A DNA stretch of 64,000 nt from Clostridia bacterium (GCA_017407205.1 JAFQXA010000019.1:41210-105209); one strand, 5' to 3'. Shown: positions 2,292-39,512, counted from the first letter of the stretch. Translations and numbers: made by a program. The notes: generated by a model not told the origin, from the sequence alone.

Positions 2292-2320
2292 TTGACATTG
2301 CCCTGTTTTTGAAATAGAAT
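2292..2320 (+). promoter_or_regulatory. sigma-A type promoter (TTGACA-17 nt-TAGAAT) driving the cobalamin riboswitch operon
   Basis: TTGACA at 2292-2297, TAGAAT at 2315-2320, 17-nt spacer. It is divergent from the ileS promoter. Confidence 0.65.
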
Positions 2321-2329
2321 AGCCACAAC

Positions 2330-2490
2330 TAAATATATTGCGTACGATTATGCAGGAAGTCGGTGAAATGCCGACACAGGCTTGCCCCTACTGTATGCGG
2401 GGACTTATCAGGCGTGTACCATTGCTTAAAAAGCGAGAAGGTGCTTGAAAAAAAGGTTGATCCGCGAGTCAGGATATTGCATTTTTGTGC
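2330..2490 (+). promoter_or_regulatory. cobalamin (B12) riboswitch aptamer
   Basis: Three conserved core elements are present: GGAAGTCGGTGAAATGCCGACACAGGCTTGCCCCTACTGTA, a GTACCATTGC..GAGAAGGTG segment, and a B12-box-like GAGTCAGGATATTGC at about 2467-2480. Confidence 0.8.
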
Positions 2491-2545
2491 ATTTTACGTG
2501 CTTTTCGGGTAGGGAAAAATCGTATGACTTTTTACAGGATTTTAT

Positions 2546-2580
2546 CCGTACCCTCAAAAGCAGGGCGCGGATTTTTTGTC
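2546..2580 (+). terminator. intrinsic terminator / expression platform of the cobalamin riboswitch
   Basis: CCGTACCCT (2546-2554) pairs with AGGGCGCGG (2562-2570) with one mismatch and one G-U pair. It is followed by ATTTTTTGTCTTTTT. Confidence 0.6.
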
Positions 2581-2611
2581 TTTTTAATAAAAACAAAGGA
2601 GGAATTTTATC

Positions 2612-4204
2612 GTGAGATTTAAGAAAACTGCGGCGGTGCTTTTGCTTGCCTTATTGCTTTTATCGTGCAATACAGCATTTGCACTCAACATCAAGGCAGA
2701 CAGCAATGCAAAAATAAGCCTCTTTTCACAACTCAACAATTATCATACGGTAGAGGTTGAGCCTGTTTCGTCAAGGGCTGAGGGCGAAAGCACGGTATAT
2801 GCTTACGATGTTTCGAATCTTGCAGGAGTAACATACCGCGTGTCAAAAGACGGTTTTATAACGCAAGCAGGGTATATTGACGCTGAAAATCCCATTGATA
2901 TTGAAGTTGTTTTTGATAAACAAGAAAATGCACAGAGCTGTGAAAACAATGTTGAAGTAATAAATAAAAGACTTGAAAACAGCGTGCTTTTAGGTGTAAA
3001 CAGTAAAAACTTCGTACACCTTCAGGTGGGTGAGGATTATTCATATGCTGCGTATCGAGCTGCATGGCAGATAGTAAACCGAGATACGGGAAACATTGTG
3101 ATAGAGCCTGACTTTAAACACCGCACCGTGTATGGTGAGGGTTGTGTTTTTGTAAAAGACTTGGGAAGCGTTGGCAATGCACGGGATAACCGCGTAACAA
3201 TAACAGGTCAAAAAGAGGGCTTGGCGATAATCGAAACGGTGTATGAAGCCCTTGATATTTCCGGTGACAGCCGATATACGGGGCGATACGGAGCGAGCGA
3301 TGAAAACCGAAGCGGAATTTTAGTCGTAAAGGTGGGGGGCGAAAGCGTTTCACTTGATTGGGGCGTAAAATGGGACAGCGAACGCGATACGCTTTATTTT
3401 GTGGGTGAGGGAGGAAGCCTGAAAATAAAACCCTCTGTTTCAGATGATGAGGTGGACAGCATATCCGTTTTGAATATAGCAAGCGGCAAAGAATTTGAAA
3501 GCGTTTTAAAAGACGGTGAAGCATACAGCGTGCCGATAGGAAACGGAAACAATGTCATAAGAGTGAATTTAAAAAGCGGCAGGGAGGATTATCTTGTTGT
3601 ACGCGGAAAAAGGGTGACGGTAAGCATTGAAAATACCGCAGGGAGAAAAAATGTAAAGGCAGGGGATACTGTCAATATCCACATAGACGGATTATATATG
3701 CCGATACCCAAGATGAGTGCCGTGTATAACCCTTACAGAAATAAAATTGTCTATACCGATACGAGCTTGACGGAGCATATGAGTAAAGCACATCAGTATG
3801 ATTTGTCAGCTTCAAACAGCTTGAGTGTTGCTGTGCCGAGCGATTTTGAGGGGGATGTGTATACATTAAGCAACGGTCGCATTTATACCGAGATGTATTG
3901 TGCGCAGGATATAACGCACAGGGATATAACGGACAGCGGTGTTGATACAAACGTGAAAGCTGTGCTCATAAAGGAATTTTATTCGGTTTTGCCGGATATA
4001 GAAATCAAGCTTTCGCAGGATGATGCTCTTTCGGGCGATGTAAATCTTGACGGCAAGGTAAATTCGCGTGATATTGCCGTTTTGCAAAGACAGGTCATGG
4101 GAAGCGAAGAAAAGAACGAAAGTGGCGATGTGAACCTTGACGGCAAGGTGAATTCAAGGGATATAGCATTTCTGCAAAAACAGATTTTAGGAAATGAGGT
4201 ATGA
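2612..4204 (+). CDS. secreted/surface protein of unknown function with C-terminal type I dockerin
   Basis: GTG start 9 nt after AAGGAGG. Signal peptide MRFKKTAAVLLLALLLLSC. The C-terminus has duplicated GDVNLDGKVNSRDIA(V/F)LQ(R/K)Q calcium-binding dockerin repeats. Confidence 0.8.
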   Translation: MRFKKTAAVLLLALLLLSCNTAFALNIKADSNAKISLFSQLNNYHTVEVEPVSSRAEGESTVYAYDVSNLAGVTYRVSKDGFITQAGYIDAENPIDIEVVFDKQENAQSCENNVEVINKRLENSVLLGVNSKNFVHLQVGEDYSYAAYRAAWQIVNRDTGNIVIEPDFKHRTVYGEGCVFVKDLGSVGNARDNRVTITGQKEGLAIIETVYEALDISGDSRYTGRYGASDENRSGILVVKVGGESVSLDWGVKWDSERDTLYFVGEGGSLKIKPSVSDDEVDSISVLNIASGKEFESVLKDGEAYSVPIGNGNNVIRVNLKSGREDYLVVRGKRVTVSIENTAGRKNVKAGDTVNIHIDGLYMPIPKMSAVYNPYRNKIVYTDTSLTEHMSKAHQYDLSASNSLSVAVPSDFEGDVYTLSNGRIYTEMYCAQDITHRDITDSGVDTNVKAVLIKEFYSVLPDIEIKLSQDDALSGDVNLDGKVNSRDIAVLQRQVMGSEEKNESGDVNLDGKVNSRDIAFLQKQILGNEV

Positions 4205-4208
4205 GAAA

Positions 4209-4850
4209 ATGAAAAGATGGACTGTTTTTATTTTAATATTTGCGATGATGTTTCAAATGGTGGGCTGCAAAGACGCTGAAACGGATATTGAGGCATTAAG
4301 CACTCCCGAAGCGACTTTACAAAACACACCCATTGCAACAGCGGAAGCTCAGGAGAGTTTGAACCCGTCCATATGCCCTGTGCAGACGGAAAAAGTAACG
4401 GCAAAACCGGAAGAAACCGACAACAAAAAGACAGAGCCTCCAAAGACGGCAGAGCCGAAGAACATATGTTCACTGAAAGTCGATTGCTCCGTTATTTTTG
4501 ACAATATGGACGAATTTGATGAGAAAAAGCTCATTTTACTGCCCGATGACGGAATAATATATTCAAGCTCAGAAGCAGAGTTTAAAGAAGGCGAAACGGT
4601 TTTTGATGTTTTGCTCAGAGAGCTTAAAAACAATAAAATACATTTTGATTATACGTCCTCAGCCATGGGAAACAATGTGTATATCGTAGGTATAAACAAT
4701 ATTTACGAGCTTGACTGCGGCGGTATGTCGGGCTGGGTCTACTCCGTAAACGATGAATATCCCGATTGCCCTTGCAGTCAGTATGTACTCTCAAAAGGCG
4801 ATAGAATAGAAGTCGTCTATACTTGTGATATGGGGGAGAACATGGGATAA
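4209..4850 (+). CDS. DUF4430 (transcobalamin beta-domain-like) lipoprotein, putative cobalamin-binding
   Basis: The track ORF is 4194..4850; the start at MKRWTVFILIFAMMFQMVGC (lipobox) is preferred. The C-terminal GETVFDVL..MSGWVYSVNDEYP..YVLSKGDRIEVVYTCD matches the DUF4430 pattern. It is co-transcribed behind the B12 riboswitch. Confidence 0.7.
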   Translation: MKRWTVFILIFAMMFQMVGCKDAETDIEALSTPEATLQNTPIATAEAQESLNPSICPVQTEKVTAKPEETDNKKTEPPKTAEPKNICSLKVDCSVIFDNMDEFDEKKLILLPDDGIIYSSSEAEFKEGETVFDVLLRELKNNKIHFDYTSSAMGNNVYIVGINNIYELDCGGMSGWVYSVNDEYPDCPCSQYVLSKGDRIEVVYTCDMGENMG

Positions 4851-5012
4851 AGTTCAGAAAAAGGGAAGAACAGCAAATAAATGTGTCAAAATCTGAATTT
4901 CAACAAAAAACATTAAATCTTTTCACGCGCTTGTCACAATATAATATTTGAACAGTTTGGAAAACTGTGTTATTATGGGAGCAGTGTTCTTAGAAATTTA
5001 AGGAGGCACATT

Positions 5013-7046
5013 TTGAAAAAATTAAAAACACCGTTAATTTACGCAGGAATAATATTGGTGATAGTTCTTTTGGTATCAAACCTTAATTTGGCAGGTTCAA
5101 ACCCTAAAGAGCCTACCGAGTATACCGATTTTCTTGAAATGGTACAGAAGGGTGAGGTAACCGTTCTTGAACTTACCGGCAATACACTTGTCGGTTTAAA
5201 GGGTGAAAAAACAGAAGCTCAGCTTAAAAAGTTCCCCAAGCTCTATGACTTCTTTGTATATGTTCCGTCGGAAGAGCGTTTTGCTACGGATATGGCTGTA
5301 ATTGCAGCGGAGCTTACAGGTAAGGATGTTGAGCATATCACAAGCTCGGATTATGCTTTCACTTATACATACAATCCGCCTCCCGAGGCTTCAATCTGGG
5401 AAATCATACTTCCGTATATCATAATATTCGGTGCATTTGGTGTATTCTATTTCTTCCTCATGCGTTCCCAGGGTGGCGGAAATAAGATGATGAACTTCGG
5501 CAAGAGCCGTGCCCGCACGCATATTGACCCGAAGAATAAAGTGACGTTTGACCAGGTAGCAGGTGCCGACGAGGAAAAAGAAGAGCTTAAAGAAGTTGTT
5601 GAATTCATGCGTTCACCCAAACGCTTTACAGACATGGGTGCAAGAATTCCCAAGGGCGTTTTGCTCGTAGGCCCTCCGGGCACAGGTAAAACATTGCTTG
5701 CAAAGGCTGTTGCAGGCGAAGCAAATGTTCCATTCTTCTCAATCTCAGGTTCTGACTTTGTTGAAATGTTCGTAGGTGTCGGTGCAAGCCGTGTAAGAGA
5801 CTTGTTCGGCACAGCCAAAAAGTGTGCTCCTGCCGTTGTATTTATTGACGAAATAGACGCTGTAGGTCGTCAGAGAGGTGCAGGCTTAGGTGGCGGTCAC
5901 GACGAGCGTGAGCAGACCTTGAATCAGCTCTTGGTTGAGATGGACGGCTTTGCAATAAACGAGGGAATAATCGTTATTGCAGCTACAAACCGCCCCGATA
6001 TATTGGACCCTGCGCTTTTGCGTCCCGGCAGATTTGACAGGCAGATAACGGTTTCATATCCTGATGTAAAGGGCAGAGAAGAAATTTTGAAGGTGCACGC
6101 AAAGGGCAAGCCGTTTGCAGATGATGTGGATTTATCGGTTCTTGCAAAGCGTACTTCGGGCTTCACGGGTGCAGACCTTGAGAATGTTCTCAACGAGGCT
6201 GCGATTTTGGCTGCAAGATTCAAGAAAAAGAAAATATCTATGGTAGAGCTTGAAGAAGCAGTAACGCGTACAGTAATAGGTCCTGAAAAGCACAGCCGTG
6301 TAGTAACGGAAGACGATAAGCGTATCACGGCTTACCACGAAGCAGGTCACGCAATAGTTGCACGCATGATGAAGCATTGCGATCCCGTTCACGAGGTTTC
6401 AATAATTCCGCGTGGCAATGCAGCAGGCTATACAATGACAATGAGCGATGACGATATGCGCCATATGTCAAGGGGCAAGCTCCTTGATATGATAGCAATG
6501 AGCATGGGCGGCAGAGTCGCAGAAGAAATAAAGCTTGACGATATCTGCACAGGCGCTATAGGCGATTTGAAGCACGCAACCGAGGTTGCACGCAGAATGG
6601 TTGTTGAGTTTGGCATGAGTGACGATATAGGTCATGTATTCTTAGGCGGAGATGCTGAAGTTTTCATCGGCAAGGATTGGGGACATCAGCGTAATTACTC
6701 GGAAGAAGTTGCTGCAAAGGTCGATTCTGAAATCAGAAGAATACTTGAAGAACAGCATGACAGAGCAAAGAAAGTCTTGCTTGAAAATGATGAAGCACTT
6801 GAACGTGTCGTAAAAGCACTTTTAGAGTACGAACGCATAACAGGCGAAGAATTTGAAAAGCTGTTTAGCGGTGAAGAAGTAGAGATAACTTCCTACGCGA
6901 AGAAGAAAGAACAGCTTCAGACGGCTGACCCTGAAGTTTTGAAGCAGGAAGAAGAGGAAGCCAGGAAAAAGGCTGACGAAGTAGAACGCATACTTCGTGA
7001 GGCTGAACAAATCATAGGCGAGGAAAAGAAAGACGGAGAAAAATAA
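5013..7046 (+). CDS. ftsH: ATP-dependent zinc metalloprotease FtsH
   Basis: N-terminal TM segments, Walker [12 protein letters not shown] second region of homology, and HEAGHA zinc site. TTG start after GGAGG. Confidence 0.95.
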
Positions 7047-7939
7047 TGAGATTTTCCGAAGGAATTTCCAATATAAAAGATTCGGTAAGGGGCGATAATC
7101 GCCCCTTTGATTTTCATATTCATTCAAACATGTCGGATGGTACATACTCCCCAAGAGAGATTGTTTCACTTGCAAAAGCGGGCGGTGTATTTACGATTGC
7201 AGTTACCGACCATGATAATGTTTCGGGAGTAAGAGAAGCTCAAACAGCAGGTGAAGAAGAGGGCGTTCATGTTATAAGCGGAGTCGAAATAGATACCGAG
7301 TTTGAGTGCGAGCTTCATATTATCGGGCTTTGCATGAATATAAACAATCCGAATTTTGTACGCCTGCTTGAAGATGCCAAAGTGCACAGACAAGAGAGAA
7401 ACAAACTTATTATCGAGCGCCTTGAAAATATAGGTATTCCCGTATCTGAAAAAATAGAAAGCCAAAAAGATGCAACCGTGACAAGACTCAATATCGCAAA
7501 AGCAATAGTTGATTGCTCCTTCGCACAAAGCTTTTATGAAGCGTTTGAAAAGTATCTCAATAAAGGCAGAGCAGGCTATGTTTTTGTTGAGAGGACGGAC
7601 AAGATAAAAGCCGTAAAAACAATAAAAGAGGCAGGCGGAATAGCGGTTCTGGCGCACCCCTGCAAACTGCAATGCGATAAAAACAAGCTTGTGCATGACT
7701 TAAAAGAAGCAGGGCTTGATGCACTCGAAATTTATTATCCCAAGACAACTGAGGGGCAGTTAGGTGAGCTTATGTCGCTTGCAAACAGGTATGATCTTGA
7801 TGTAAGCAGTGGCAGTGATTTTCACGGCAAGAACCGAAAAAATACGGATTTGGGCTGTGCATATCAAAATGTTCATTGCCTGAACGCTTTTTTTGAAAAA
7901 GTAATGCTTAAAGAAGCAGAAAACAAGCGCTTAAGCTGA
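7046..7939 (+). CDS. PHP-domain phosphoesterase (TrpH/YciV-like)
   Basis: FDFHIHSNMSDG, AVTDHD, AHP and GSDFHG metal-binding motifs typical of the PHP family. Confidence 0.65.
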   Translation: MRFSEGISNIKDSVRGDNRPFDFHIHSNMSDGTYSPREIVSLAKAGGVFTIAVTDHDNVSGVREAQTAGEEEGVHVISGVEIDTEFECELHIIGLCMNINNPNFVRLLEDAKVHRQERNKLIIERLENIGIPVSEKIESQKDATVTRLNIAKAIVDCSFAQSFYEAFEKYLNKGRAGYVFVERTDKIKAVKTIKEAGGIAVLAHPCKLQCDKNKLVHDLKEAGLDALEIYYPKTTEGQLGELMSLANRYDLDVSSGSDFHGKNRKNTDLGCAYQNVHCLNAFFEKVMLKEAENKRLS

Positions 7940-7979
7940 CTTGTAAAACATGGGTGATTTGCTGTATAATAAACAGGTT

Positions 7980-8816
7980 ATGGCAAGAATAGAGATAAAA
8001 AACTTAACATACTTTTACGCAGACGGTGAAACGCCTGTTTTAGACGATGTTTCGCTTAATGTAAATGAGGGCGAAATACTTGCAATAGTCGGGCATAACG
8101 GAAGCGGAAAGTCAACACTTGCAAAGCATATGAATGCTTTGCTCCTGCCGTATTCGGGAACTGTGAAGATTGACGGAATGGACACCTTGAACGAAGAGAA
8201 TACATTGAGTATCCGCCAAAAGGTAGGCATGGTATTTCAAAATCCCGATAACCAGATTGTCACAACGGTAGTCGAGGAAGATGTAGGCTTCGGTCCTGAA
8301 AATCTCGGCATTCCGACCGATGAAATATTGAGTCGTGTTTCGTCTTCTCTTGAGGCTGTGCGCATGAGCGAGTTTGCAAAAAATGCACCGCATATGCTGT
8401 CGGGCGGACAGAAGCAGAGAGTTGCAATAGCAGGTATCCTGGCAATGATGCCCGAGGTTCTGATATTGGATGAGGCTACCGCAATGCTTGATCCAAAAGG
8501 CAGGCAGGACGTTTTAAACATAGCGAAAAAACTTAATACAGAATCGAATATGACGGTTGTCATGATAACGCAGTACATGGAGGAAGCGGTTATTGCAGAC
8601 CGTGTAATAGTTATGCACGAGGGCAAAATTGTAAAGACAGGAACTCCCAAGACAGTGTTTGCGTATGACAGCGATATAGAAAAGTACTCGTTGGAGCTTC
8701 CGCACATGGCAAGGCTTCGTGACGGGCTTATAGAAAAAGGCATCGAGATTCCCCACGATGCACTCTTGATTGAGGAGCTTGAGAAAGCACTATGTCCATT
8801 GTTGCAGAAAAACTGA
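7980..8816 (+). CDS. ecfA1: ECF transporter energizing ATPase EcfA1
   Basis: Walker A GHNGSGKST, signature LSGGQKQR, Walker B ILDEAT. The track ORF starts at 7950, but MARIEIKNLTYFY is the usual EcfA N-terminus. Confidence 0.85.
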   Translation: MARIEIKNLTYFYADGETPVLDDVSLNVNEGEILAIVGHNGSGKSTLAKHMNALLLPYSGTVKIDGMDTLNEENTLSIRQKVGMVFQNPDNQIVTTVVEEDVGFGPENLGIPTDEILSRVSSSLEAVRMSEFAKNAPHMLSGGQKQRVAIAGILAMMPEVLILDEATAMLDPKGRQDVLNIAKKLNTESNMTVVMITQYMEEAVIADRVIVMHEGKIVKTGTPKTVFAYDSDIEKYSLELPHMARLRDGLIEKGIEIPHDALLIEELEKALCPLLQKN

Positions 8817-9649
8817 CACATATATACCTTGAAGGAAGTCCGAACGAGAGTGTGGCAATAGACAGCATCGACCTTAAAATCGAAGCCGGAGAGTTTTGGG
8901 GAATAATCGGCCACACAGGAAGCGGAAAGTCAACACTTGTCCAGCACCTGAACGCACTTATGCAGCCCACATCCGGCAGGATTTGCGTTGACGGTGATGA
9001 CCTCAAGGATAAGAAAAACAGGCGTGAGGCACGAAAAAAAGTAGGCCTTGTGTTTCAGTATCCCGAATATCAGCTTTTTGAAGAAACCGTATTAAAGGAT
9101 ATAGCATACGGCCCCATGAATATGGGGGAAAGTACAGAAAAAGCATATGAAATTGCACGTGAGGCAATGGTGAGCGTGGGGCTTTCCCCCGATGAAATCG
9201 AGGGAAGATCGCCGTTTGAGTTGTCGGGCGGACAAAAACGCCGTGTGGCGATTGCAGGCATAATAGCGATAAGGCCGCGTTATCTCGTGCTTGATGAGCC
9301 CATGGCGGGTCTTGACCCCAGGGGCAGAAAAGATATTTTGAACCTTTTAAAGACATTGAGAGAAAAAACGGGCTGTGCAGTTATAATGATATCCCACTCG
9401 ATGGACGACATTGCACAGTTTGCAGACCATGTGGCAGTTCTGAATGAAGGCAAGCTTTACAAGGCAGGAAGTGTTGCAGAGGTCTTTTCGGATATGGAAG
9501 CACTGCGCAGAACAGGACTTGACATACCGCAGGCTGCAATTTTGGCAGAGAGACTCAAAAAACAGGGCATAGAAATTGACCGTTCGATATATACGGTTGA
9601 ACAAATGCTTGACTTTATAACAGAAAAGACGGGCGGTGTATCAGGATGA
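8792..9649 (+). CDS. ecfA2: ECF transporter energizing ATPase EcfA2
   Basis: Walker A GHTGSGKST, LSGGQKRR, LVLDEP. It overlaps ecfA1 and ecfT as in canonical ecfAA'T operons. Confidence 0.85.
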   Translation: MSIVAEKLTHIYLEGSPNESVAIDSIDLKIEAGEFWGIIGHTGSGKSTLVQHLNALMQPTSGRICVDGDDLKDKKNRREARKKVGLVFQYPEYQLFEETVLKDIAYGPMNMGESTEKAYEIAREAMVSVGLSPDEIEGRSPFELSGGQKRRVAIAGIIAIRPRYLVLDEPMAGLDPRGRKDILNLLKTLREKTGCAVIMISHSMDDIAQFADHVAVLNEGKLYKAGSVAEVFSDMEALRRTGLDIPQAAILAERLKKQGIEIDRSIYTVEQMLDFITEKTGGVSG

Positions 9650-10452
9650 AGGATATAACGCTCGGACAATATTATAATGTCGATTCAATAATTCATGCAC
9701 TTGATCCAAGAACAAAGCTCGTGCTTACTTTTGCGTACCTTATATTGGTCTTTCTCGTAAGTAAGCTGTGGGCTTTCGGTCTTGTCGCACTCTTTGCAAT
9801 CTCGATTATATACCTTTCAAAAGTACCCTTTAAGATGGTATTAAAAGCCTTGAAACCTATGCGTTTTTTGCTTGTGCTTATGTTCCTTTTAAACCTCTTT
9901 GCGGCAAAAAGCGGAGAAGTTCTCCTTAAGTGGTGGATATTTGAGATTACAGCAGGCGGAATAAGACAGGCAGTATTCATAGTAATAAGGCTTTTATTGC
10001 TCGTCGCAGGTACAACGCTTATGACGTTTACGACAACTCCTATATCCTTGACGGACGGGCTTGAAAAATTGCTTGCACCGCTTAAAAAAATAGGGTTCCC
10101 GTCACATGAGCTTGCAATGATGATGACGATAGCTTTAAGGTTTATTCCTACTTTACTTGAGGAAGCGGACAAGATAATGAAAGCGCAGCTCTCAAGAGGT
10201 GCGGATCTTGAAAGCGGTAATATAATAAAGCGTGCAAAGAGCATGATTCCTATATTGGTACCTCTTTTTGTGAGTGCTTTCCGCCGTGCGGACGAGCTTG
10301 CAATGGCAATGGAAAGCAGGTGCTATCACGGAGGCGAGGGAAGAACTAAAATGCGTGTTATAGCTTTCAAAAAGCGTGATGCGATTGCATTTTTGATTTT
10401 TGCCTCTGCATTTGCTTTGATTTTGGTTTTACAAAAGCTTGTAGTTTTCTAA
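9646..10452 (+). CDS. ecfT: ECF transporter transmembrane component EcfT
   Basis: Polytopic membrane protein with the ALRFIPTLLEEADKIMKAQLSRGA coupling-helix motif (Ala-Arg-Gly type). Confidence 0.85.
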   Translation: MKDITLGQYYNVDSIIHALDPRTKLVLTFAYLILVFLVSKLWAFGLVALFAISIIYLSKVPFKMVLKALKPMRFLLVLMFLLNLFAAKSGEVLLKWWIFEITAGGIRQAVFIVIRLLLLVAGTTLMTFTTTPISLTDGLEKLLAPLKKIGFPSHELAMMMTIALRFIPTLLEEADKIMKAQLSRGADLESGNIIKRAKSMIPILVPLFVSAFRRADELAMAMESRCYHGGEGRTKMRVIAFKKRDAIAFLIFASAFALILVLQKLVVF

Positions 10453-10471
10453 GACTTTTACGGAGCGTGCT

Positions 10472-10903
10472 ATGGAGCTTTCAAAGAAGATAAAAAGAAC
10501 AGTTTTGATAATAGTCGCAATACTCATTCTTGCGGCCGCTTGCCTTTACTTCATCGCGCAAAACAGCAATTCCTATAAATGGATAAGTGATGAGCTTTCA
10601 AGCTTTTCCGTGAATATCGATGAAAAAAACTTTGTTTATGAGGGCAACGCTTCAAATACGAGTATCAGTGAATTGCTTGTAACAGATGATGCTTCAAAGA
10701 TTGAGGAAGCAGTCAACGCAAGCAAAAAAAGCGGTTTTGCCTCCGATATGGATGCAATCGGAAATATTGTATTTATCACAAATCAAATTAACCAAGACGA
10801 AGTATTGAATTTATATATCTTTGAAAACGAAAGAACTCCCATGCACATTGCACTGTGCTATATACAAAACAGCATAAACGGCAAAGTGAGGGCTGTCGAA
10901 TGA
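10472..10903 (+). CDS. membrane-anchored hypothetical protein
   Basis: Single N-terminal TM helix and no recognisable motif. Its stop overlaps the truA start (ATGA at 10900-10903). Confidence 0.5.
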   Translation: MELSKKIKRTVLIIVAILILAAACLYFIAQNSNSYKWISDELSSFSVNIDEKNFVYEGNASNTSISELLVTDDASKIEEAVNASKKSGFASDMDAIGNIVFITNQINQDEVLNLYIFENERTPMHIALCYIQNSINGKVRAVE

Positions 10904-11664
10904 GAATAAGAACGGTTATAAGCTATGACGGCACGAATTACGTTGGCTACCAGGTACAGCTAAACGGAATAAGTATACAGGAAAAAATTGAAAAGGCACT
11001 GTTTGAAATAACGGGCGAAAAAATTGTTTTGCACGCATCGGGGCGAACGGATTCAGGTGTTCACGCAAGGGCACAGGTTGCACATTTTGATACGGAAAGT
11101 AAAATACCGCCCGATAAATTCAGCTTTGCACTTAATGCGCATTTGCCCAAGGATATACGCATTATGCACAGCGAGGAAGCAGATCGTGAGTTTCACTCAC
11201 GCTTTTCCGCGAAGAAAAAGACATATTGCTATACTGTGCAAAACGGTATACATGAAAATCCGTTCCTTCGAAATACCGCACTCTTTATTCATTCCGACAT
11301 AGATTTTGATGCAATGCAGAAAGAGGCAGAAGCGGTAGTCGGCACCCATGATTTTGCCGCTTTCCGTTCAACGGGTACAGTTAACAAAACAACGGTGAGA
11401 ACGGTGTTCGAGTCTTACTGGACAAAAAAAGAAAATCTCTATATTTATACTGTAACGGGTGACGGTTTCCTGTATAATATGGTTAGAATACTTGCAGGAA
11501 CAATGCTTGATGTAGGCACGAAAAGGCTCGAAAAGGGTGCGATAGCGCGTGCACTTGAGAGCACACAAAGAAGTGATGCAGGTGCAACAGCACCGCCTCA
11601 TGGACTCATGCTTTACCGCGTGGTCTATCCTGATTTTGATACGGAGGATGTTTTAAAAAAATGA
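10900..11664 (+). CDS. truA: tRNA pseudouridine(38-40) synthase TruA
   Basis: MRIRTVISYDGTNYVGYQVQ, catalytic GRTDSGVHA, and the usual position after ecfT. The start was moved from the track ORF (10855) to the conserved N-terminus. Confidence 0.9.
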   Translation: MRIRTVISYDGTNYVGYQVQLNGISIQEKIEKALFEITGEKIVLHASGRTDSGVHARAQVAHFDTESKIPPDKFSFALNAHLPKDIRIMHSEEADREFHSRFSAKKKTYCYTVQNGIHENPFLRNTALFIHSDIDFDAMQKEAEAVVGTHDFAAFRSTGTVNKTTVRTVFESYWTKKENLYIYTVTGDGFLYNMVRILAGTMLDVGTKRLEKGAIARALESTQRSDAGATAPPHGLMLYRVVYPDFDTEDVLKK

Positions 11665-12608
11665 AAGTAGTAGTATTGCCGCCCGTTGATGAGGGGCACA
11701 AAAAGACACTTCAAAGCGCTTGCGAAAGTGCACACTTTGTATATACAACACGAGAAAAAGTGAGCGAAAAAGATGTTTGCGATGCCGATATAATTTTTGG
11801 CAATGTGCCGTTTGACTTGCTTAAAAAAACGAAAAAATTAAAGCTTTTACAGCTTGCGGCAGCAGGGACTGACGGATATCTTGATACGCTTCCTCAAGGT
11901 GCTACCCTTGCAAATGTAACGGGTGCTTTCGGGCTTGCAATCGGTGAGCATATGCTTGGCGTAACGCTTATGATAATGAAGCGCTTGCACCAATACAGGG
12001 ATAACCAGCTAAAGCATGATTGGCGTGATATGGGCAATGTAAACTCAATCGAGGGCTCAACGGTGCTCGTGCTGGGCATGGGTGATATAGGCGGAAGCTA
12101 TGCTAAAAAAATGAAAGCGTTGGGTGCTTATGTGATAGGTGTAAGAAGAACCGACCTCACAAAGCCCGACTATGCAGATGAAGTTCATCTTACAAGTGAA
12201 ACGGACAAGCTTTTGGGTAGAGCCGATATAGTTGCAATGGCAATGCCTTCCATGAAAGAAACATATAAATTCATGGATAAAAGAAGGCTTGCACTTTTAA
12301 AGGACGGTGCAATACTTGTAAATGTAGGCAGGGGCAATGCAATAGATACGGAAAGCCTTGCGGATGAATGTGCAAAGGGCAGAATAAGTGCAGCCCTTGA
12401 TGTAACAGACCCTGAGCCCTTGCCGAGTGACCACAGGCTTTGGGATATGGAAAATGTTGTGATAACACCGCACATTTCGGGATTTTTCCACTTAAAGAAA
12501 ACGCTTGATAATGAAGTTGACATTGCAGCATACAACATAAAAGCACTTGCAGAGGGCAGGGAATTTAAAAATCTTGTTGACATGGAAACAGGCTATCTTA
12601 AGAAATAA
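11661..12608 (+). CDS. D-isomer-specific 2-hydroxyacid dehydrogenase family protein
   Basis: NAD-binding GMGDIGGSYA Rossmann motif, a VNVGRG segment, and the ITPHISG catalytic His region. Confidence 0.7.
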   Translation: MKVVVLPPVDEGHKKTLQSACESAHFVYTTREKVSEKDVCDADIIFGNVPFDLLKKTKKLKLLQLAAAGTDGYLDTLPQGATLANVTGAFGLAIGEHMLGVTLMIMKRLHQYRDNQLKHDWRDMGNVNSIEGSTVLVLGMGDIGGSYAKKMKALGAYVIGVRRTDLTKPDYADEVHLTSETDKLLGRADIVAMAMPSMKETYKFMDKRRLALLKDGAILVNVGRGNAIDTESLADECAKGRISAALDVTDPEPLPSDHRLWDMENVVITPHISGFFHLKKTLDNEVDIAAYNIKALAEGREFKNLVDMETGYLKK

Positions 12609-12629
12609 TCCTTTTTGAGGAGGAACAGC

Positions 12630-13919
12630 ATGGACAATATATTGCTTATACTGTGTATTTTACTGATGCTTATTTGCGTTGCACTTTTAATTGTACTCTT
12701 GGTGAAGCAAGGGGGCAATAAAAGCGAACAGGCGATTGAAGCTTTGAGACGTGAAAGTGCAGAGCGCGAGCGTGCCACGCGTACAGAGCTTAACGAAAAT
12801 CTGCGTGCAGGGCTTGGCATTATAAACGATAATGTTTCCGGCAAGGTTTCAGAGATTGATAACAACCTGATGTCAAAGCTTGAGATTTTAAACCAGAACC
12901 AGTACACGGCAAGCAAGAATCTTGAAAACCGCCTTGCAACTTTTTCGGGTGAGAATGAGCAAAAGCTTGAAAATATCCGCTTGACTGTTGAAAAACGCTT
13001 GAACTATATTCAGGAAGACAACAATAAACGCCTTGACGAGATCCGCACGATTGTTGATGAAAAGCTTCAGGAGCGTATGAATCAAAGCTTTGCCCTGGTA
13101 AGTGAAAGGCTTGAGCTTGTTTATAAGGGGCTCGGCGAAATGCAAACCCTTGCAGTTGGTGTGGGTGACCTTAAAAAGGTGCTTTCAAATGTAAAGACGA
13201 GGGGCGTTTTGGGCGAAATGCAGCTTGGTGCAATAATATCTGAAATACTTGCACCCGAGCAGTATGAAACAAATGTAATAACTGTCAAAAACAGCCGCAA
13301 TCCGGTCGAATATGCAATTAAAATGCCGGGCAATGACGGCGACTCGTTCGTATATCTGCCGATAGATGCAAAGTTCCCGTCCGATGCGTATTATGAGCTT
13401 ATGGACGCTTATGAAAGCGGTGATGCTGTGCGTGTAAAGACGGCACAGGACACCTTGAAAACGCGAATAAAGGGCTTTGCAAAGGATATAAAGACAAAGT
13501 ATATAGAGCCACCCAACACAACCGACTTTGCAATAATGTTTTTGCCGACGGAGGGCTTGTATGCCGAGGCCGTGAAACTTGGACTCATTGAAGCCTTACA
13601 GCGTGAACACAAAGTGAGCATAACGGGCCCGTCCACAATGGCGGCACTTTTGAACAGCTTGCAGATGGGATTCAGGACGCTTGCAATACAGAAGCGAAGC
13701 AGTGAGGTATGGAAAGTGCTGGGTGCTGTACGCACAGAGTTTGATAAATTTCATGAAGTGCTTGAAAAGACACAGGAAAAGCTTACAAAGGCAAACAGCG
13801 ACCTTGATGCACTCATTGGAGTAAGAACAAGAAAGATTATGAGCAAGCTTAAGGATGTTACGGCACTTCCTTATGAAGAAGCTCAAACATATTTGCCGAC
13901 AAATGATGATATAAACTGA
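12630..13919 (+). CDS. rmuC: DNA recombination protein RmuC
   Basis: N-terminal TM helix plus long coiled coil, then a C-terminal RmuC nuclease-like region (FAIMFLPTEGLYAEA). ATG at 12630 follows GAGGAGG. Confidence 0.8.
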   Translation: MDNILLILCILLMLICVALLIVLLVKQGGNKSEQAIEALRRESAERERATRTELNENLRAGLGIINDNVSGKVSEIDNNLMSKLEILNQNQYTASKNLENRLATFSGENEQKLENIRLTVEKRLNYIQEDNNKRLDEIRTIVDEKLQERMNQSFALVSERLELVYKGLGEMQTLAVGVGDLKKVLSNVKTRGVLGEMQLGAIISEILAPEQYETNVITVKNSRNPVEYAIKMPGNDGDSFVYLPIDAKFPSDAYYELMDAYESGDAVRVKTAQDTLKTRIKGFAKDIKTKYIEPPNTTDFAIMFLPTEGLYAEAVKLGLIEALQREHKVSITGPSTMAALLNSLQMGFRTLAIQKRSSEVWKVLGAVRTEFDKFHEVLEKTQEKLTKANSDLDALIGVRTRKIMSKLKDVTALPYEEAQTYLPTNDDIN

Positions 13920-13942
13920 ATTTTAAAGAGGAGGAATTAAAA

Positions 13943-14653
13943 ATGGCAACACCGCATATTAACGCAGAAAAGGGCGATTTCGCTAAAACCGTACTTATGC
14001 CCGGCGATCCGCTTCGTGCAAAGTTTATCGCAGAGAATTTTCTTGAGGATGCCCGTCTTGTAACAAGCGTAAGAAACATACTCGGCTACACAGGTACATA
14101 CAAGGGAAAGAAAGTATCCGTAATGGCAAGCGGAATGGGTATGCCGTCAATGGGCATATATTCATATGAGCTTTTCAACTGCTTTGATGTTGAAAACATA
14201 ATCCGCATCGGCACAGCAGGCTCGATAGCTCCCCAGGTTAAGCTCAAGAGCATTATAGTCGGCATGAGTGCAAGCTTTGACTCAAACTTTGGTGCACAGT
14301 TCAAAATGCCCGGCACATACTGCCCCACAGCAAGCTATAAGCTTTTAAAGGCTGCAACGGACACGGCAGAAGAACTTAATTTGAACATTCATGTCGGCAA
14401 CATCTTCTCAAGTGATTTGTTCTATGATGATGCTTCAACAACTCTCGATTGGCAGAAAATGGGAGTATTGGGCGTTGAAATGGAAAGTGCAGCCCTTTAT
14501 ATGAACGCAGCAAGAGCAGGCAAGAACGCACTTTGCATCTGCACAGTATCCGACGAATTGCCCACGGGCAACCGCTGCACAACAGAGGAGCGCCAGCAGA
14601 ACTTCACCGACATGATGAAGCTCGCCCTCGAAATGCTCGACAAGATAGACTGA
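13943..14653 (+). CDS. deoD: purine nucleoside phosphorylase DeoD-type
   Basis: MATPHINAEKGDFAKTVLMPGDPLRAKFIAENFL and GVEMESAALY are near-canonical DeoD sequences. Confidence 0.9.
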   Translation: MATPHINAEKGDFAKTVLMPGDPLRAKFIAENFLEDARLVTSVRNILGYTGTYKGKKVSVMASGMGMPSMGIYSYELFNCFDVENIIRIGTAGSIAPQVKLKSIIVGMSASFDSNFGAQFKMPGTYCPTASYKLLKAATDTAEELNLNIHVGNIFSSDLFYDDASTTLDWQKMGVLGVEMESAALYMNAARAGKNALCICTVSDELPTGNRCTTEERQQNFTDMMKLALEMLDKID

Positions 14654-14676
14654 TAACTAAAACGCAAAAGACACAA

Positions 14677-14706
14677 AAAACGCACGGATTTTTCCGTGCG
14701 TTTTTG
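14677..14706 (+). terminator. intrinsic terminator of deoD
   Basis: CGCACGGA (14681-14688) pairs with TCCGTGCG (14693-14700), followed by TTTTT. Confidence 0.85.
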
Positions 14707-14720
14707 CTTGTATTGAAAAT
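14697..14720. repeat. left copy of 24-nt imperfect direct repeat bracketing the accessory islet
   Basis: TGCGTTTTTGCTTGTATTGAAAAT compared with TGCGTTTTTGCTTACCTTGAAAAT at 17952-17975: 21 of 24 identical, including an exact 13-mer and an exact 8-mer in register. Confidence 0.6.
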
Positions 14721-14844
14721 TTTAGTCTGCGTTTTCCGGTTTCTGCTTGCTGAGTGGAAATATTGTGCCTTTAATATGTTGATTCAAAGGGATAGAACCT
14801 CACACTTCGATTATATAATTGACAAGGATAAGTGGGTTGTATAA

Positions 14845-14858
14845 CACAATATATTGTG
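14845..14858. promoter_or_regulatory. perfect 14-bp palindrome CACAATATATTGTG, candidate XRE operator
   Basis: Perfect dyad read directly from the sequence. It lies about 100 nt upstream of the HTH gene and next to TTGACA/TATAAT-like boxes. Confidence 0.45.
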
Positions 14859-14897
14859 CTATAATAAGCAATATAGACCAAAAAATATCAAAACAAC

Positions 14898-14926
14898 TTG
14901 ACAATGTTATAATTAAACAGTATGAT
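14898..14926 (+). promoter_or_regulatory. sigma-A type promoter (TTGACA-17 nt-TATGAT) for the XRE/ImmA genes
   Basis: TTGACA at 14898-14903 and TATGAT at 14921-14926, 30 nt upstream of the ATG at 14957. Confidence 0.55.
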
Positions 14927-14956
14927 TATAAATAAAGATTAAAGGAGGTTTGATAT

Positions 14957-15301
14957 ATGTCGGTATTTAGTGAAAGGCTTACGGCATTGATGAAAGCAAA
15001 AGGATTTTCACAAAAAGAATTTGCAAAGCGAGCGAATGTTACTGAATCGGCAATGTCTTACTATGTAAAAGGAGTACGTACTCCGAGTGGAGAAGTACTC
15101 GCAAGAATTGCAAGGGCACTCGATACAACGGCCGATTATCTTTTAGGTAGCACGGATAGCATCGAAGTGCCTGAAGAACAAAAAGAACTTAAATATCTGC
15201 AAAGAAATCTCGGCAAATTGGATGATAAACAATTAAAAACAGCAGAAAAAATGTTGAAATTGATGTTTAATGACATTTTTGAGGATGATGACGAGGAGTG
15301 A
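14957..15301 (+). CDS. XRE-family helix-turn-helix transcriptional regulator (ImmR-like)
   Basis: LMKAKGFSQKEFAKRANVTESAMSYYVKGVRTPSGEVLARIARALDTTADYLLG is a classic HTH_3 domain. RBS AAAGGAGG. Confidence 0.85.
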   Translation: MSVFSERLTALMKAKGFSQKEFAKRANVTESAMSYYVKGVRTPSGEVLARIARALDTTADYLLGSTDSIEVPEEQKELKYLQRNLGKLDDKQLKTAEKMLKLMFNDIFEDDDEE

Positions 15302-15305
15302 ATTT

Positions 15306-15971
15306 GTGGCGAGTAGTGCAAAACCAAATTTTTCAGCAGCATATTCAAAAGCTAATGAGATTTTAGTAAAATCCCTTGTTATTTCCATGTTTCCTTTTTC
15401 TCCTATTGAACTTGTGAAAGAACAATCCGCCATAATGTGCCGTACTTACAAAAAGGCTCAAAAGTATGGCATTGACATTACTGCTTTTGGCAGTGATTCG
15501 GCTACTATTTTTGAATGTGACGGAAGGCAGATCATATTTTACGATGACAGCAAAGTGATGACTCATGTAAAATACTCAATTTTACACGAGCTGGGACATT
15601 CTTTAATCAATCACGATTTTTCTGTTAATGATAAAGAAACTTACGGTCAATACGAGGTTGAAACAAACTATTTTGCTGCTCAATTGCTTATGCCGGAACA
15701 GGTGCTGCGAGAGTTTGCGAAGCGCGGAGCCCGTATCACAAAAGAGTTTCTGATGGAACATTTTGAAGTGTCGGAAACGGCTGCAAAAAAACGCATTGAA
15801 ACGCTTGCGAAAACAACGGCTGAGTGGCGTTCCCGTCAAGAGAAAGAATTTGATGATATTATTCTCTGTAAGTTCTCTGCTTTTATCAATAGCACTTGTC
15901 CTTATAGCAATGACTACTTTGATTTTGAGGACGAATATGAACGTCAGCGTACAAGAGATTCTTGGTTTTAA
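15306..15971 (+). CDS. ImmA/IrrE-family zinc metallopeptidase
   Basis: HELGHSLINHD HExxH motif in the ImmA/IrrE context, directly downstream of the XRE gene. GTG at 15306 lies 7 nt after GAGGAG; the track ORF is 15270..15971. Confidence 0.75.
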   Translation: MASSAKPNFSAAYSKANEILVKSLVISMFPFSPIELVKEQSAIMCRTYKKAQKYGIDITAFGSDSATIFECDGRQIIFYDDSKVMTHVKYSILHELGHSLINHDFSVNDKETYGQYEVETNYFAAQLLMPEQVLREFAKRGARITKEFLMEHFEVSETAAKKRIETLAKTTAEWRSRQEKEFDDIILCKFSAFINSTCPYSNDYFDFEDEYERQRTRDSWF

Positions 15972-16000
15972 TTGCAAGCTTAAAATATAGATTGGAGGTG

Positions 16001-16075
16001 ATGTTTATGATTGTAGATAAAGATAAAGAAAAAAGCATTTCGCAAGTTGCGCCAACAACGAACGAAACGCTTTGA
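16001..16075 (+). CDS. possible 24-aa leader peptide (MFMIVDKDKEKSISQVAPTTNETL)
   Basis: ATG follows GGAGGTG, and the ORF is followed by a structured region. It is too short to support by composition. Confidence 0.2.
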   Translation: MFMIVDKDKEKSISQVAPTTNETL

Positions 16076-16192
16076 GTGTCGGATATGCTATGATATCCAA
16101 CCAGTGGACAGGTTCATTGTAGCATATCCTTCGATGGTTGTAAATTTAAAAATTTATGCTGTCTATCTAAAAGATTAAGGAGGATATAAAAA

Positions 16193-16885
16193 ATGACAGA
16201 TAAAAAAACAAATAATTTATTCTATGACGGTTTTAACTCGAAACTGATCGAAACCGCATTTTTCGAGGGCTTTCTTGAAATTCCTATCTTGGAAGCTCCG
16301 AAAGAAATTATTATACCTTCGGTTGCTGTACCGTTTTCAAAAAGAAAGGAGCTTACTGACCCTTCGAAAGAAATGCTCGTTTTCTACGAGAAAGATCCCG
16401 TGTTTAGAGATTTCGTAAGTATACCGCAGAATTACATTGATGAACTGAAAAATGTCAAAATAATCACTACGCCTGATTGCTCTCTTTATCGAGACATGCC
16501 ACTTTGGTCGCAAATAGCGAACATTGGTGTGAGTCGCTCTGTAGGATATTATTTGCAACAGCAAGGAAAATATGTGATTCCCAATGTTCGTTGGGGAGAT
16601 GAGCAGACATACACAAAAGGTCTGCTGGATTATCCACCTGCATTTTCGGGTATACCGAAAAACAGTATTGTTTCAATCGGTACTTATGGATGCAGTCAAA
16701 AGAAAGAGGACAAATATTTTCTTGAAGCAGGGCTTGAAGTCATGCTTCAAGAATTAGCACCGCAGGTCGTTGTAGTGTACGGTTCGTATAACCCTAAAAT
16801 CTTCGGCAAATACGAGCGTTATACGCAGTTCCATCATTTGCCTGACTGGACTACATATGCCCACAATGGGAAGAGGGTGGTCTGA
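16193..16885 (+). CDS. DUF4417 domain protein (function unknown)
   Basis: The pattern FYEKDPVFRDF..KIITTPDCSLYRDMPLWSQIANIGVSRSVGYYLQQQGKYVIPNVRWGDE..SIVSIGTYG matches my recollection of the DUF4417 family. RBS AAGGAGG. Confidence 0.55.
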   Translation: MTDKKTNNLFYDGFNSKLIETAFFEGFLEIPILEAPKEIIIPSVAVPFSKRKELTDPSKEMLVFYEKDPVFRDFVSIPQNYIDELKNVKIITTPDCSLYRDMPLWSQIANIGVSRSVGYYLQQQGKYVIPNVRWGDEQTYTKGLLDYPPAFSGIPKNSIVSIGTYGCSQKKEDKYFLEAGLEVMLQELAPQVVVVYGSYNPKIFGKYERYTQFHHLPDWTTYAHNGKRVV

Positions 16886-38182: not shown

Positions 38183-39355
38183 TTACGGAATGAGCTTTTC
38201 TGCAACGTCTGTACGCTCCCAGGGGAGGTCGAGATCGTTTCTGCCGAAGTGACCGTAAGCTGCTGTCTGACGGTAGATGGGGCTTCTCAAATTAAGCCTC
38301 TCTATGATAGCTTCGGGACGGAGGTCGAAGTGTTCTTCAATAAGCTGCTGGATGCGTTCATCACTTACAACGCCTGTGCCGTCTGTATCAACGAGGATTG
38401 AAACGGGGCGTGCAACGCCGATTGCGTATGCAAGCTGAACTTCACAGCGTGAAGCGAGCTTTGCTGCAACGATGTTCTTTGCAACGTAACGTGCGGCATA
38501 TGCTGCACTTCTGTCAACCTTTGTCGGGTCCTTACCGGAGAATGCGCCACCGCCGTGACGGCCCATTCCGCCGTATGTATCAACGATTATCTTTCTGCCT
38601 GTGAGACCTGCATCGCCCTGAGGACCGCCGATTACGAAACGGCCTGTGGGGTTAACGTAAATCTTTGTATCTGTATCAAGATATTCAGCAGGGATTATGG
38701 GCTTGATAACATTTTCAAGGATATCAAGGCGAATCTTATTGAGGTCAACATCGGGATCATGCTGTGTTGAAATAACGATTGTATCAACACGGATGGGCTT
38801 GCCGTTGTCATACTCAACAGTTACCTGGCTCTTACCGTCGGGACGGAGATATGTCAAGATGCCGTCCTTGCGAACTTTGGTAAGTCTGCGTGTGAGAGCG
38901 TGTGCCAATGAGATGGGGAGGGGCATATATTCGGGTGTTTCGTCACAAGCAAAGCCGAACATCATACCCTGGTCACCTGCACCTGTTGTGAAGTTGTCAG
39001 TAGTTTCGCCGCTCTTTGTTTCGAGGGACTTGTCAACGCCCATTGCGATGTCGGGTGACTGTTCCTTGATAGCTGTGATAACTGTAAGTGAGCTGCTGTC
39101 AAAACCGTATTCGGGCTTATCGTAACCGATATCCTTTACAACATCACGAACGAGCTTTGTGATATCAACTTCACAGTTAGCTGTGATTTCGCCCATAACG
39201 AGCACTGTACCTGTTGTTGCTGCACACTCGCAAGCTACGCGAGCGTTCTTGTCCTGTGCGAAAATCGCATCAAGCACTGCATCGGATATGCAGTCACAAA
39301 CCTTATCGGGATGTCCTTCGGTTACCGATTCTGAAGTAAAGAGTTTTCTTGCCAT
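38183..39355 (-). CDS. metK: S-adenosylmethionine synthase
   Basis: [33 protein letters not shown], and [19 protein letters not shown]. The start was trimmed from the track ORF (39388). Confidence 0.95.
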
Positions 39356-39368
39356 TTTAAAAACCTCC

Positions 39369-39512
39369 AAAAATAAAATCAACCTCACACAGTGATGAGG
39401 TCAGATTATACATCGCTCATCTTTCAATGCGTGTGCATTGCCGGAATTGGCACCTTGCTGTAAGTAGGTTGCCGGGCTTCACAGGGCCGTTCCCTCTGCC
39501 TCTCTTGATAAA
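39369..39512 (-). promoter_or_regulatory. SAM-I (S-box) riboswitch with terminator, leader of metK
   Basis: The reverse complement reads TTATCAAGAGAGGCAGAGGGAACGGCCCTGTGAAGCCCGGCAACC..GGTGCCAATTCCGGCA..GAAAGATGAG. This is followed by an ACCTCA..TGAGGT hairpin and a T-run. Confidence 0.9.

Follow-up and report, generated by a model that had tools for sequence, protein, structure and literature searches.

In a 64,000-nucleotide stretch of DNA from Clostridia bacterium (GCA_017407205.1, JAFQXA010000019.1:41210-105209; hereafter the window), positions 2,292 to 4,850 hold a cobalamin riboswitch followed by two genes, one (gene 1) for a secreted protein that ends in a dockerin and the other (gene 2) for a lipoprotein with a DUF4430 domain. 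The two proteins are probably B12-repressed extracellular accessories of an uptake system for vitamin B12 (corrinoids) of the energy-coupling factor (ECF) type, a reading in which corrinoid binding, docking, hand-off and the identity of the importer are the parts that we infer.

The evidence comes from the riboswitch and its terminator, from the domain content of both proteins, from a gene order that reveals a deletion, from purifying selection on gene 1, and from the linkage of a whole protein family to cobalamin riboswitches. An earlier interpretation made from this DNA alone (the sequence-only reading) had assigned both proteins to B12 acquisition at the cell surface, in an operon devoid of transporter genes. 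Comparative genomics does link both proteins to B12 acquisition, and both are extracellular, but the absence of transporter genes turned out to be a derived state.

The Riboswitch Leader

A scan with the Rfam covariance model matched the leader over the full length of RF00174 (model positions 1-189), with a score above the gathering threshold, in agreement with the sequence-only reading, which had called a clear B12 riboswitch. The leaders of two orthologous loci, L001 and L002, scored 68.8 and 67.1 bits, respectively. The elements of the leader are the following (coordinates are those of the window, counted from its first letter):

2292-2320, + strand: sigma-70-like promoter, TTGACA-17-TAGAAT (consensus scan, 11/12 positions, pattern match only)
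2317-2497, + strand: cobalamin riboswitch aptamer, RF00174 (57.8 bits against a gathering threshold of 31.5, E = 1e-11)
2459-2466, + strand: aptamer 3' segment GAUCCGCG, putative antiterminator strand, with its partner at 2566-2573 (minimum free energy fold and covariation)
2545-2585, + strand: intrinsic terminator, with a 2545-2553/2563-2571 stem, a 9-nt loop and a U-tract at 2572-2585 (consensus hairpin of three orthologues)

The near-consensus site just 5' of the aptamer is promoter-like. The terminator hairpin, whose stem is followed by the U-tract TTTTTTGTCTTTTT, is kept in the leaders of the window, L001 and L002, and folding of their alignment revealed one compensatory pair in which both sides had changed. 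A simple terminator scan returned no site in this leader, because the scan allows loops of up to 8 nt and the actual loop has 9.

In the minimum free energy fold of the single sequence, GAUCCGCG pairs with the 3' arm of the terminator. The two strands also covary in the alignment of orthologous leaders, reading CCGCG/CGCGG in the window, CCGUA/UACGG in L001 and CCGCA/UGCGG in L002. Judging from these pairings, the helix 2459-2466/2566-2573 would be an antiterminator. When adenosylcobalamin is scarce, the 3' strand of the aptamer would bind the 3' arm of the terminator, allowing RNA polymerase to read through; when B12 is bound, the aptamer would retain that strand, the terminator would form and transcription would halt, so that both genes would be switched off. 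The leader contains both a terminator and an alternative antiterminator pairing, that is, an expression platform capable of switching. The terminator-type platform proposed from the sequence is thus supported by the conserved hairpin, the U-tract and the covarying antiterminator pairing.

Gene Order and Loss of the Transporter Genes

The operon and its surroundings are organized as follows:

2612-4204, + strand: gene 1, open reading frame for a signal peptide, a B12-regulon beta-sandwich module and a dockerin, 530 aa
4209-4850, + strand: gene 2, DUF4430 (transcobalamin beta-domain-like) lipoprotein, 213 aa (218 aa from the alternative start, 4194)
4851-5012, + strand: deletion scar or intergenic stretch, where relatives hold ecfT, ecfAA' and ecfS (from the relatives' gene order)
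5013-7046, + strand: ftsH, a synteny landmark outside the system (open reading frame; FtsH_ext in the L002 neighbour)
7950-10452, + strand: housekeeping ecfA1, ecfA2 and ecfT (two ABC_tran matches and CbiQ), possible energiser of an S component from another locus

In the window and in two further strains (L086 and L168), the two-gene operon is followed by ftsH, as the sequence-only reading had it for the window (start at 5013), with no transporter gene in between. Positions 4948-4976 of the intervening stretch resemble a promoter for ftsH.

The orthologous operons run on. In L001/L006 and in L002, the order is RF00174, module-dockerin, DUF4430, CbiQ-type ecfT, double ABC ATPase and ECF S component, and in L002 the S component gene (CbrT-like, 5292-5984) is directly followed by ftsH (FtsH_ext). 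L089, from the same metagenome-assembled genome as L001, reads ecfAA', ecfS, ftsH, PHP, ecfA, ecfA', ecfT. Genes for S, T and ATPase components are present in the orthologous loci L001 plus L089, L002 and L087.

In L088, which encodes the closest relative of the window FtsH (87%), ileS (- strand) stands immediately beside ftsH (+ strand) and the whole B12 operon is absent. A search with the window FtsH found ileS directly adjoining ftsH also in L091, L094, L096, L097, L102 and L105, meaning that the B12 operon is an insert at the ileS/ftsH junction. This junction exists in three states, namely without the operon, with the complete (six-gene) operon, and with the operon truncated to two genes, as in the window.

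Since the orthologous operons at the junction carry ecfT, ecfAA' and ecfS, we take the pair to be accessories of an ECF-type B12 importer. The ancestral operon, which we call six-gene, comprised module-dockerin, DUF4430, ecfT, ecfAA' and ecfS, and its last three genes have been lost in this species. The riboswitch-led operon of the window holds no dedicated ECF importer (S, T and A genes), while gene 2 is orthologous to the DUF4430 lipoprotein encoded upstream of ecfT. The sequence-only reading was therefore right that there is no transporter gene in the operon, but this reflects a secondary loss, as the orthologous operons continue into ecfT, ecfAA' and ecfS.

A separate ecfA1-ecfA2-ecfT-truA cluster lies 3.1 kb downstream (7950-11664), and its link to the B12 operon is a putative one. 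The capture proteins would now have to supply an importer from another locus, for which a solitary S component working with this housekeeping EcfAA'T is a plausible candidate. No CbrT-like S component was found in the 64-kb window, where the sole S component is a RibU-like gene behind a flavin mononucleotide (FMN) riboswitch. That riboswitch (116.6 bits) is located directly 5' of the gene for a 202-aa ECF S component (ECF_trnsprt, RibU-like; 48867-49694), an arrangement which shows that the organism uses solitary S components with a shared EcfAA'T module.

Strain Variation and Selection

The truncated state is fixed in the species. The two-gene order is common to three independent metagenome strains (window, L086 and L168), and contigs from four metagenomes showed no insertion or joint between gene 2 and ftsH, with one contig spanning the whole stretch in two of the four.

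Such a truncation could have left behind a functionless remnant of the ECF deletion, transcribed from the riboswitch promoter and contributing nothing to B12 uptake. Three transporter genes of the nearest relatives are indeed missing, the lack of the whole operon in L088 means that the locus is dispensable in the clade, and gene 1 is more variable than its neighbours: nucleotide divergence among the strains is 1.1-1.8% in gene 1 and 0.2-0.5% in gene 2, as compared with 0% in the first 570 nt of ftsH.

However, both open reading frames are intact in the three strains, which were compared in full and show indels only in the leader, and the contigs from the four metagenomes contain no coding indel where they cover the genes. 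The ratio of nonsynonymous to synonymous polymorphism (pN/pS) of gene 1 is 0.25-0.30, significantly below the neutral expectation (binomial p = 0.001-0.008). Moreover, the riboswitch and the terminator are intact, gene 1 retains all 16 of the columns that are invariant in its module family (see below), and in other genomes, four of the six dockerin loci that extend at least 6 kb downstream also lack adjacent ECF genes. We consequently regard a functionless remnant as improbable. The pair is still under constraint, with purifying selection acting on gene 1.

The variation in gene 1 includes a patch at residues 345-350 (approximately 3644-3661), with the substitutions R345T, K346R and A350R. This cluster recurs in L086, in L168 and in contigs of at least three out of the four metagenomes, and it marks a hypervariable surface patch in the module. 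The variability pattern of gene 1 is usual for an exposed surface protein.

The Module Family and Its Riboswitches

The region of gene 1 between the signal peptide and the dockerin (the module) defines a large family. A word-indexed protein search gave only 3-5 homologues of gene 1, as dockerin words dominated, and HMMER was used instead. The exhaustive HMMER search returned 641 representative clusters at E ≤ 1e-3, of which 167 remained at E ≤ 1e-30; most matches sit within surface proteins of 1000-3700 aa. Gene 1, with its 530 aa, is about the smallest natural form among the matches listed, and would be a convenient construct for binding and structural work. Moderately close orthologues of gene 1 were limited to two (P0002 and P0003, 51-54% identity).

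Scanning species-representative genomes with the module alignment yielded 80 related loci, a sample selected by module similarity, nearly all from uncultured Clostridia of gut and rumen. Gene content in these loci was counted by our own profile searches of six-frame open reading frames. For the riboswitches, nhmmer with three seeds found almost nothing, and we built our own covariance model from 12 Rfam-confirmed riboswitches. The model produced 83 matches in 1.32 Mb, 83/83 on the strand of the module gene.

A riboswitch match was found upstream of the module gene, on the same strand, in 60 of the 80 loci, and it was strong in 52 of these. Of the 20 loci lacking a match, 12 are truncated on the 5' side or reach less than 1.5 kb upstream. 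Rfam scans, run on 26 loci, placed RF00174 at or above gathering in 15; L027 fell just below (28.2 bits), and L074 had a match to our own model without an Rfam match at gathering. The linkage to the cobalamin riboswitch is therefore family-wide, the module being under its control in 52-60 of the 80 loci.

These counts bear on the nature of the ligand. The proteins might serve another ligand or purpose, such as uptake of haem or another tetrapyrrole, salvage of incomplete corrinoids, stripping of B12 from host or dietary carriers, or B12-dependent adhesion to B12-producing neighbours, given that the module has no known ligand and that a homologous ECF operon of L. sakei has been proposed to act on haem (10.1101/864751). 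The cobalamin riboswitch in 52-60 of the 80 loci, sometimes in tandem, speaks against such a role, as does the placement of DUF4430 in a transcobalamin-like clade (PMC1796856). Because the control by cobalamin riboswitches extends over the family, the ligand should be a corrinoid that ends up as the sensed coenzyme, and we deem a different ligand or purpose very improbable.

The module is fused to DUF4430 in 51 of the 80 loci and fused or adjacent to it in 62, and of the 43 loci that extend 6 kb or more downstream, 33 have ecfT close by. The canonical arrangement comprises the riboswitch, a giant module protein with or without DUF4430, an SLH (surface-layer homology) protein of about 530 aa, a DUF4430 lipoprotein, ecfT, and ecfAA' with or without a fused S component. 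The ∼530-aa protein is conserved between the giant module protein and the lipoprotein (L019, 12989-14626; L052, 12817-14442; L008, 12784-14349; L007, 5046-6647). It has N-terminal DGGW-type repeats and three C-terminal SLH domains, of which Pfam detects the SLH only; by their sequence, the DGGW-type motifs are reminiscent of alpha/alpha-toroid repeats, as in the alpha domain of transcobalamin.

The module stays constant while its wall anchors (SLH, CWB2 or dockerin) are swapped. The L049 protein, encoded behind a strong riboswitch (113.8 bits), has CWB2 repeats as its sole Pfam matches outside the module; in L074, SLH and cadherin-like repeats accompany the module, and in L017 there is no Pfam family at all. 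The module is a concrete and abundant candidate for B12 capture in Gram-positive bacteria: it occurs in hundreds of protein clusters from Clostridia of gut and rumen and, as a rule, goes together with DUF4430 and an ECF importer. By this comparison, ECF importers for B12 in Clostridia regularly come with an extracytoplasmic lipoprotein as partner.

Some loci contain two to four cobalamin riboswitches in series (L061, 3772-6374; L077, 3699-5962; L083, 1488-2296; L065, 1692 and 6081). In L077, small DUF4430 open reading frames (138 aa) lie between the serial riboswitches. In L083, the first gene behind the tandem riboswitch (2414-3715) encodes a 434-aa protein with FecR and DUF4430 domains, a fusion that hints at signalling or anti-sigma-type corrinoid sensing.

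The Two Encoded Proteins

Within the two genes, the following parts were recognized:

2612-2683, + strand: signal peptide of gene 1, residues 1-24, with predicted cleavage after AFA (AFA is kept in P0002 and P0003)
2684-4006, + strand: all-beta module of about 440 aa, residues 25-465 (no Pfam or NCBIfam family)
4034-4189, + strand: type I dockerin, PF00404, residues 475-526 (E = 1.3e-14, 54.6 bits against a cut-off of 22.9)
4590-4823, + strand: DUF4430 domain of gene 2, PF14478, residues 133-210 counted on the 218-aa form (E = 1.1e-14, 55 bits against 23.8)

Gene 1 had been described in the sequence-only reading as a 530-aa secreted protein of unknown fold with a duplicated dockerin at its end. 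The signal peptide and the PF00404 match bear this out, and the dockerin has two near-identical DVNLDGKVNSRDIA repeats and two D-x-N-x-D-G-x-x-N-x-x-D loops, the two-repeat type I pattern. As for the fold, residues 25-465 matched no model in Pfam or NCBIfam, but AlphaFold2, run with a 20-sequence alignment, predicted an all-beta structure of about four sandwich domains, with a predicted local distance difference test score (pLDDT) of 92.4 and a predicted template modelling score (pTM) of 0.91. The C-terminal half folded alone gave a pLDDT of 93.7.

Foldseek searches of the PDB with the whole module and with the C-terminal half returned only generic immunoglobulin (Ig), fibronectin type III (FN3) and S-layer arrays, with template modelling (TM) scores ≤0.34, and the module profile matched no PDB sequence, except for SLH domains hit by accessory regions. 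Thus a fold is now predicted for gene 1, while it still has no specific match in the PDB. Across 20 sequences of the module family, 16 columns are invariant (including D, Y, K, N, H and R residues), mostly in the C-terminal half; among them are Y303, K343, Y348, N349, Y372, H412 and R413 in module numbering. The members of the family are nearly always controlled by cobalamin riboswitches, and the gene 1 module is most likely the outer element of the system, one that would capture or present corrinoids.

The same data can be read differently, in that the module may be no corrinoid binder but a rigid stalk, spacer or adaptor that projects or organizes the real binders (DUF4430 and alpha-toroid proteins), and that in this species holds the DUF4430 lipoprotein or some other binder at the surface. 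The predicted array of four Ig-like sandwiches, with its generic Ig/FN3/S-layer matches, would suit a stalk. So would the module-DUF4430 fusions in 51 of the 80 loci, where DUF4430 could be the true ligand site, and the SLH protein of the canonical loci with its alpha/alpha-toroid-like DGGW-type motifs. Sixteen invariant positions, however, exceed what a spacer usually needs. Furthermore, L049 and L074 have riboswitch-led proteins without a Pfam ligand-binding domain beside the module, L017 has one without any Pfam family, and gene 1 itself lacks DUF4430 and yet is under purifying selection. All in all, we consider a mere stalk or adaptor rather unlikely.

For gene 2, position 4209 is most likely the start, rather than 4194, because a GAGG sequence occurs 9 nt upstream and gene calling on the strain contigs yields a 213-aa protein. 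The protein has a lipobox, MVGC, whose Cys codon (4266-4268) aligns with the G-C of the homologues; together with the PF14478 match, this substantiates the earlier description of a lipoprotein with a C-terminal DUF4430. In the alignment of homologues, the conserved block runs from about residue 95 to the C-terminus. Gene 2 shares 43-50% identity with P0156-P0161, whose genes abut CbiQ genes, and its orthologues in L001, L002, L005 and L087 are located directly 5' of ecfT, an adjacency of DUF4430 and ecfT that recurs across loci. Most likely, to judge from this gene order, the gene 2 protein would hand corrinoid to a CbrT-like S component.

The Proposed Cohesin-Dockerin Tether

In 13 of the 80 loci, the module protein has a dockerin fused to it or encoded next to it, with Pfam-confirmed dockerins in L003, L016, L027, L065, L066, L071, L083 and L085. 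In four of these (L003, L065, L066 and L083), cohesin-bearing proteins are encoded beside the module-dockerin proteins, meaning that in relatives both halves of the connector occur within a cobalamin-riboswitch-led cluster. Among loci with at least 6 kb of downstream sequence, adjacent ECF genes were found in 2/6 dockerin-type loci as against 31/37 of the remaining ones, implying that transporter-less capture operons are a recurring arrangement.

No cohesin was found within the 64-kb window, and the dockerin of gene 1 would dock onto a cohesin-bearing wall or membrane protein encoded elsewhere. The dockerin motif NSRDIA is kept in P0002 and P0003 and differs from two other dockerins of the window, which suggests a dedicated cohesin. 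The sequence-only reading had envisaged corrinoid capture on a cohesin scaffold of the cellulosome or amylosome type. Co-encoding in L003, L065, L066 and L083 backs the idea of a cohesin-dockerin assembly, but this organism resembles a gut Clostridium of the Christensenellales type rather than a producer of cellulosomes or amylosomes.

The two other dockerins belong to adjacent genes on the - strand (42856-46816), one for a 663-aa protein with a SpoIID domain and a C-terminal dockerin, the other for a dockerin-only protein of 611 aa. The organism appears to use dockerins to anchor proteins other than carbohydrate-active enzymes in general. In L003, the riboswitch-led cluster (7304-16605) lies beside phage-type recombinase genes and has genes for an HNH_repeat protein, a dockerin protein, a module protein of 923 aa and a protein of 1270 aa that combines cohesin with dockerin.

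Proposed Function of the Pair

As accessories of ECF-type uptake, the two proteins would divide the work. Gene 1 would display the rigid module of about four beta-sandwiches as an outer corrinoid receptor, and the membrane-tethered gene 2 protein would relay the corrinoid to the S component.

Several observations weigh against this assignment. The operon no longer contains an S component or dedicated T and A genes. A pN/pS of about 0.3 denotes moderate constraint and derives from 18-28 substitutions. The predicted fold of the module consists of generic tandem Ig-like sandwiches, without a match to BtuG, BtuH or transcobalamin, and for this reason the module could be a stalk or adaptor instead of a binder. 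Finally, gene 2, searched against PDB sequences both as a single sequence and as a hidden Markov model profile of its homologues, had no meaningful relative there, so that its link to transcobalamin rests on Pfam and on PMC1796856.

A bolder version of the accessory reading is one that we put forward only tentatively. The module might represent a new fold that binds or extracts corrinoids, and might act as the outermost receptor in a 'corrinosome' of Gram-positive bacteria, a riboswitch-controlled relay from the module to the DUF4430 lipoprotein and on to the ECF S component, anchored through cohesin-dockerin, SLH or CWB2, whose capture layer would be modular enough to outlast the transporter loss in this species and stay functional by feeding a solitary S component that uses the shared EcfAA'T. 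Gut communities are shaped by competition for vitamin B12 and its cobamide relatives, and cohesin-dockerin connectors would here serve nutrient capture outside polysaccharide degradation.

Other Elements in the Window

A SAM-I riboswitch (84.9 bits) is located 5' of metK, the gene for S-adenosylmethionine synthetase (38183-39514, - strand). A Gut-1 RNA (RF01706, 76.5 bits) occupies 47914-48294, about 220 nt 3' of a tRNA gene and about 570 nt 5' of the FMN riboswitch. A 488-aa open reading frame without a Pfam family (54723-56189) follows the gene for a DUF5113 protein; near it lies the gene for a 600-aa PQQ-like (pyrroloquinoline quinone) beta-propeller protein (51409-53214, - strand), and beta-propellers also occur in the B12 loci L005 and L083. 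At the end of the window (58423-63999), two adjacent genes encode large proteins with pseudomurein-binding repeats (PMBR) and a gamma-glutamyltranspeptidase domain.

Comparison with Known Systems

To our knowledge, ECF transporters have classically been described without extracytoplasmic binding proteins, and we know of extracellular corrinoid capture worked out only in Bacteroidota (BtuG, BtuH and BtuJ). ECF-CbrT of Lactobacillus delbrueckii is reportedly a characterised B12 importer of the ECF type, through work by Santos and colleagues in 2018.

The closest precedent is a prediction. Secreted or anchored Gram-positive proteins of the SLBB type (now DUF4430), many of whose operons encode more than one of them along with CbiO/CbiQ, were proposed to be B12 scavengers, possibly in surface complexes (Burroughs, Balaji, Iyer, Aravind 2007, PMC1796856), and gene 2 and the ancestral operon fit those operons in combining an anchored DUF4430 with CbiQ/CbiO. 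The 2007 operons, predicted in silico, differ in having neither a dockerin tether nor the 440-aa module, and the window has lost CbiQ/CbiO.

The orthologous loci resemble ECF-CbrT and the lsa1836-1840 ECF operon of L. sakei, for which haem uptake was proposed (10.1101/864751), in their S component (ECF_trnsprt/ECF-ribofla_trS), CbiQ-type T component, double ATPase and B12 riboswitch. The L. sakei operon encodes transcobalamin alpha- and beta-like proteins, so that a DUF4430 (beta-like) protein lies within the operon, as it does here. In contrast to ECF-CbrT, the operon of the window is without S, T and A components, and the related loci add the DUF4430 lipoprotein as a fourth component that is almost always present. 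In the relatives, the S component is called CbrT-like from family matches, its orthology to CbrT being putative.

BtuG, BtuH and BtuJ (PMC8941943; PMC13616437) are likewise riboswitch-controlled surface accessories that capture corrinoid ahead of a transporter; here, however, anchoring would be through a dockerin and a lipid in a monoderm, and the importer type is ECF rather than BtuB/BtuFCD. The sequence-only reading had proposed a Gram-positive analogue of BtuG/BtuH, and the analogy holds at the level of function, but no homology to BtuG, BtuH or BtuJ was detected: the module profile matched no PDB chain, the Foldseek hits were generic and Pfam gave no DUF4465. BtuH combines Ig-like domains with a binding domain (PMC8941943), and a homologue of BtuH is encoded close to an ECF transporter in E. 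siraeum (PMC13616437, PMC8941943). Prompted by the latter, we considered homology of gene 1 to BtuH and rejected it, as there was no similarity.

With cohesin-dockerin assemblies such as cellulosomes and the R. bromii amylosome, the system shares a canonical duplicated type I dockerin and, in related loci, co-encoded cohesins. It differs from them in that there is no carbohydrate-active enzyme, the cargo belongs to a vitamin-uptake regulon, and the window holds no cohesin.

Our literature search found no paper joining a dockerin with a cobalamin riboswitch. A C. difficile riboswitch review, looked up since L049 carries CWB2, places no Cwp under B12 riboswitch control, and Gram-positive extracellular cobamide capture is 'entirely uncharacterized' according to a review of the Bacteroides relay from 2026 (PMC13616437). 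Corrinoid capture by way of a dockerin had also been termed uncharacterised in the sequence-only reading; this stands for the conjunction of the two, but Gram-positive scavenging by DUF4430/SLBB proteins has been a prediction since 2007. As a kind of system, an ECF-linked surface apparatus that scavenges B12 under riboswitch control has long been predicted. What is new is the dockerin tether, the unnamed B12-linked beta-sandwich module, and the clean loss of the transporter genes in this species.

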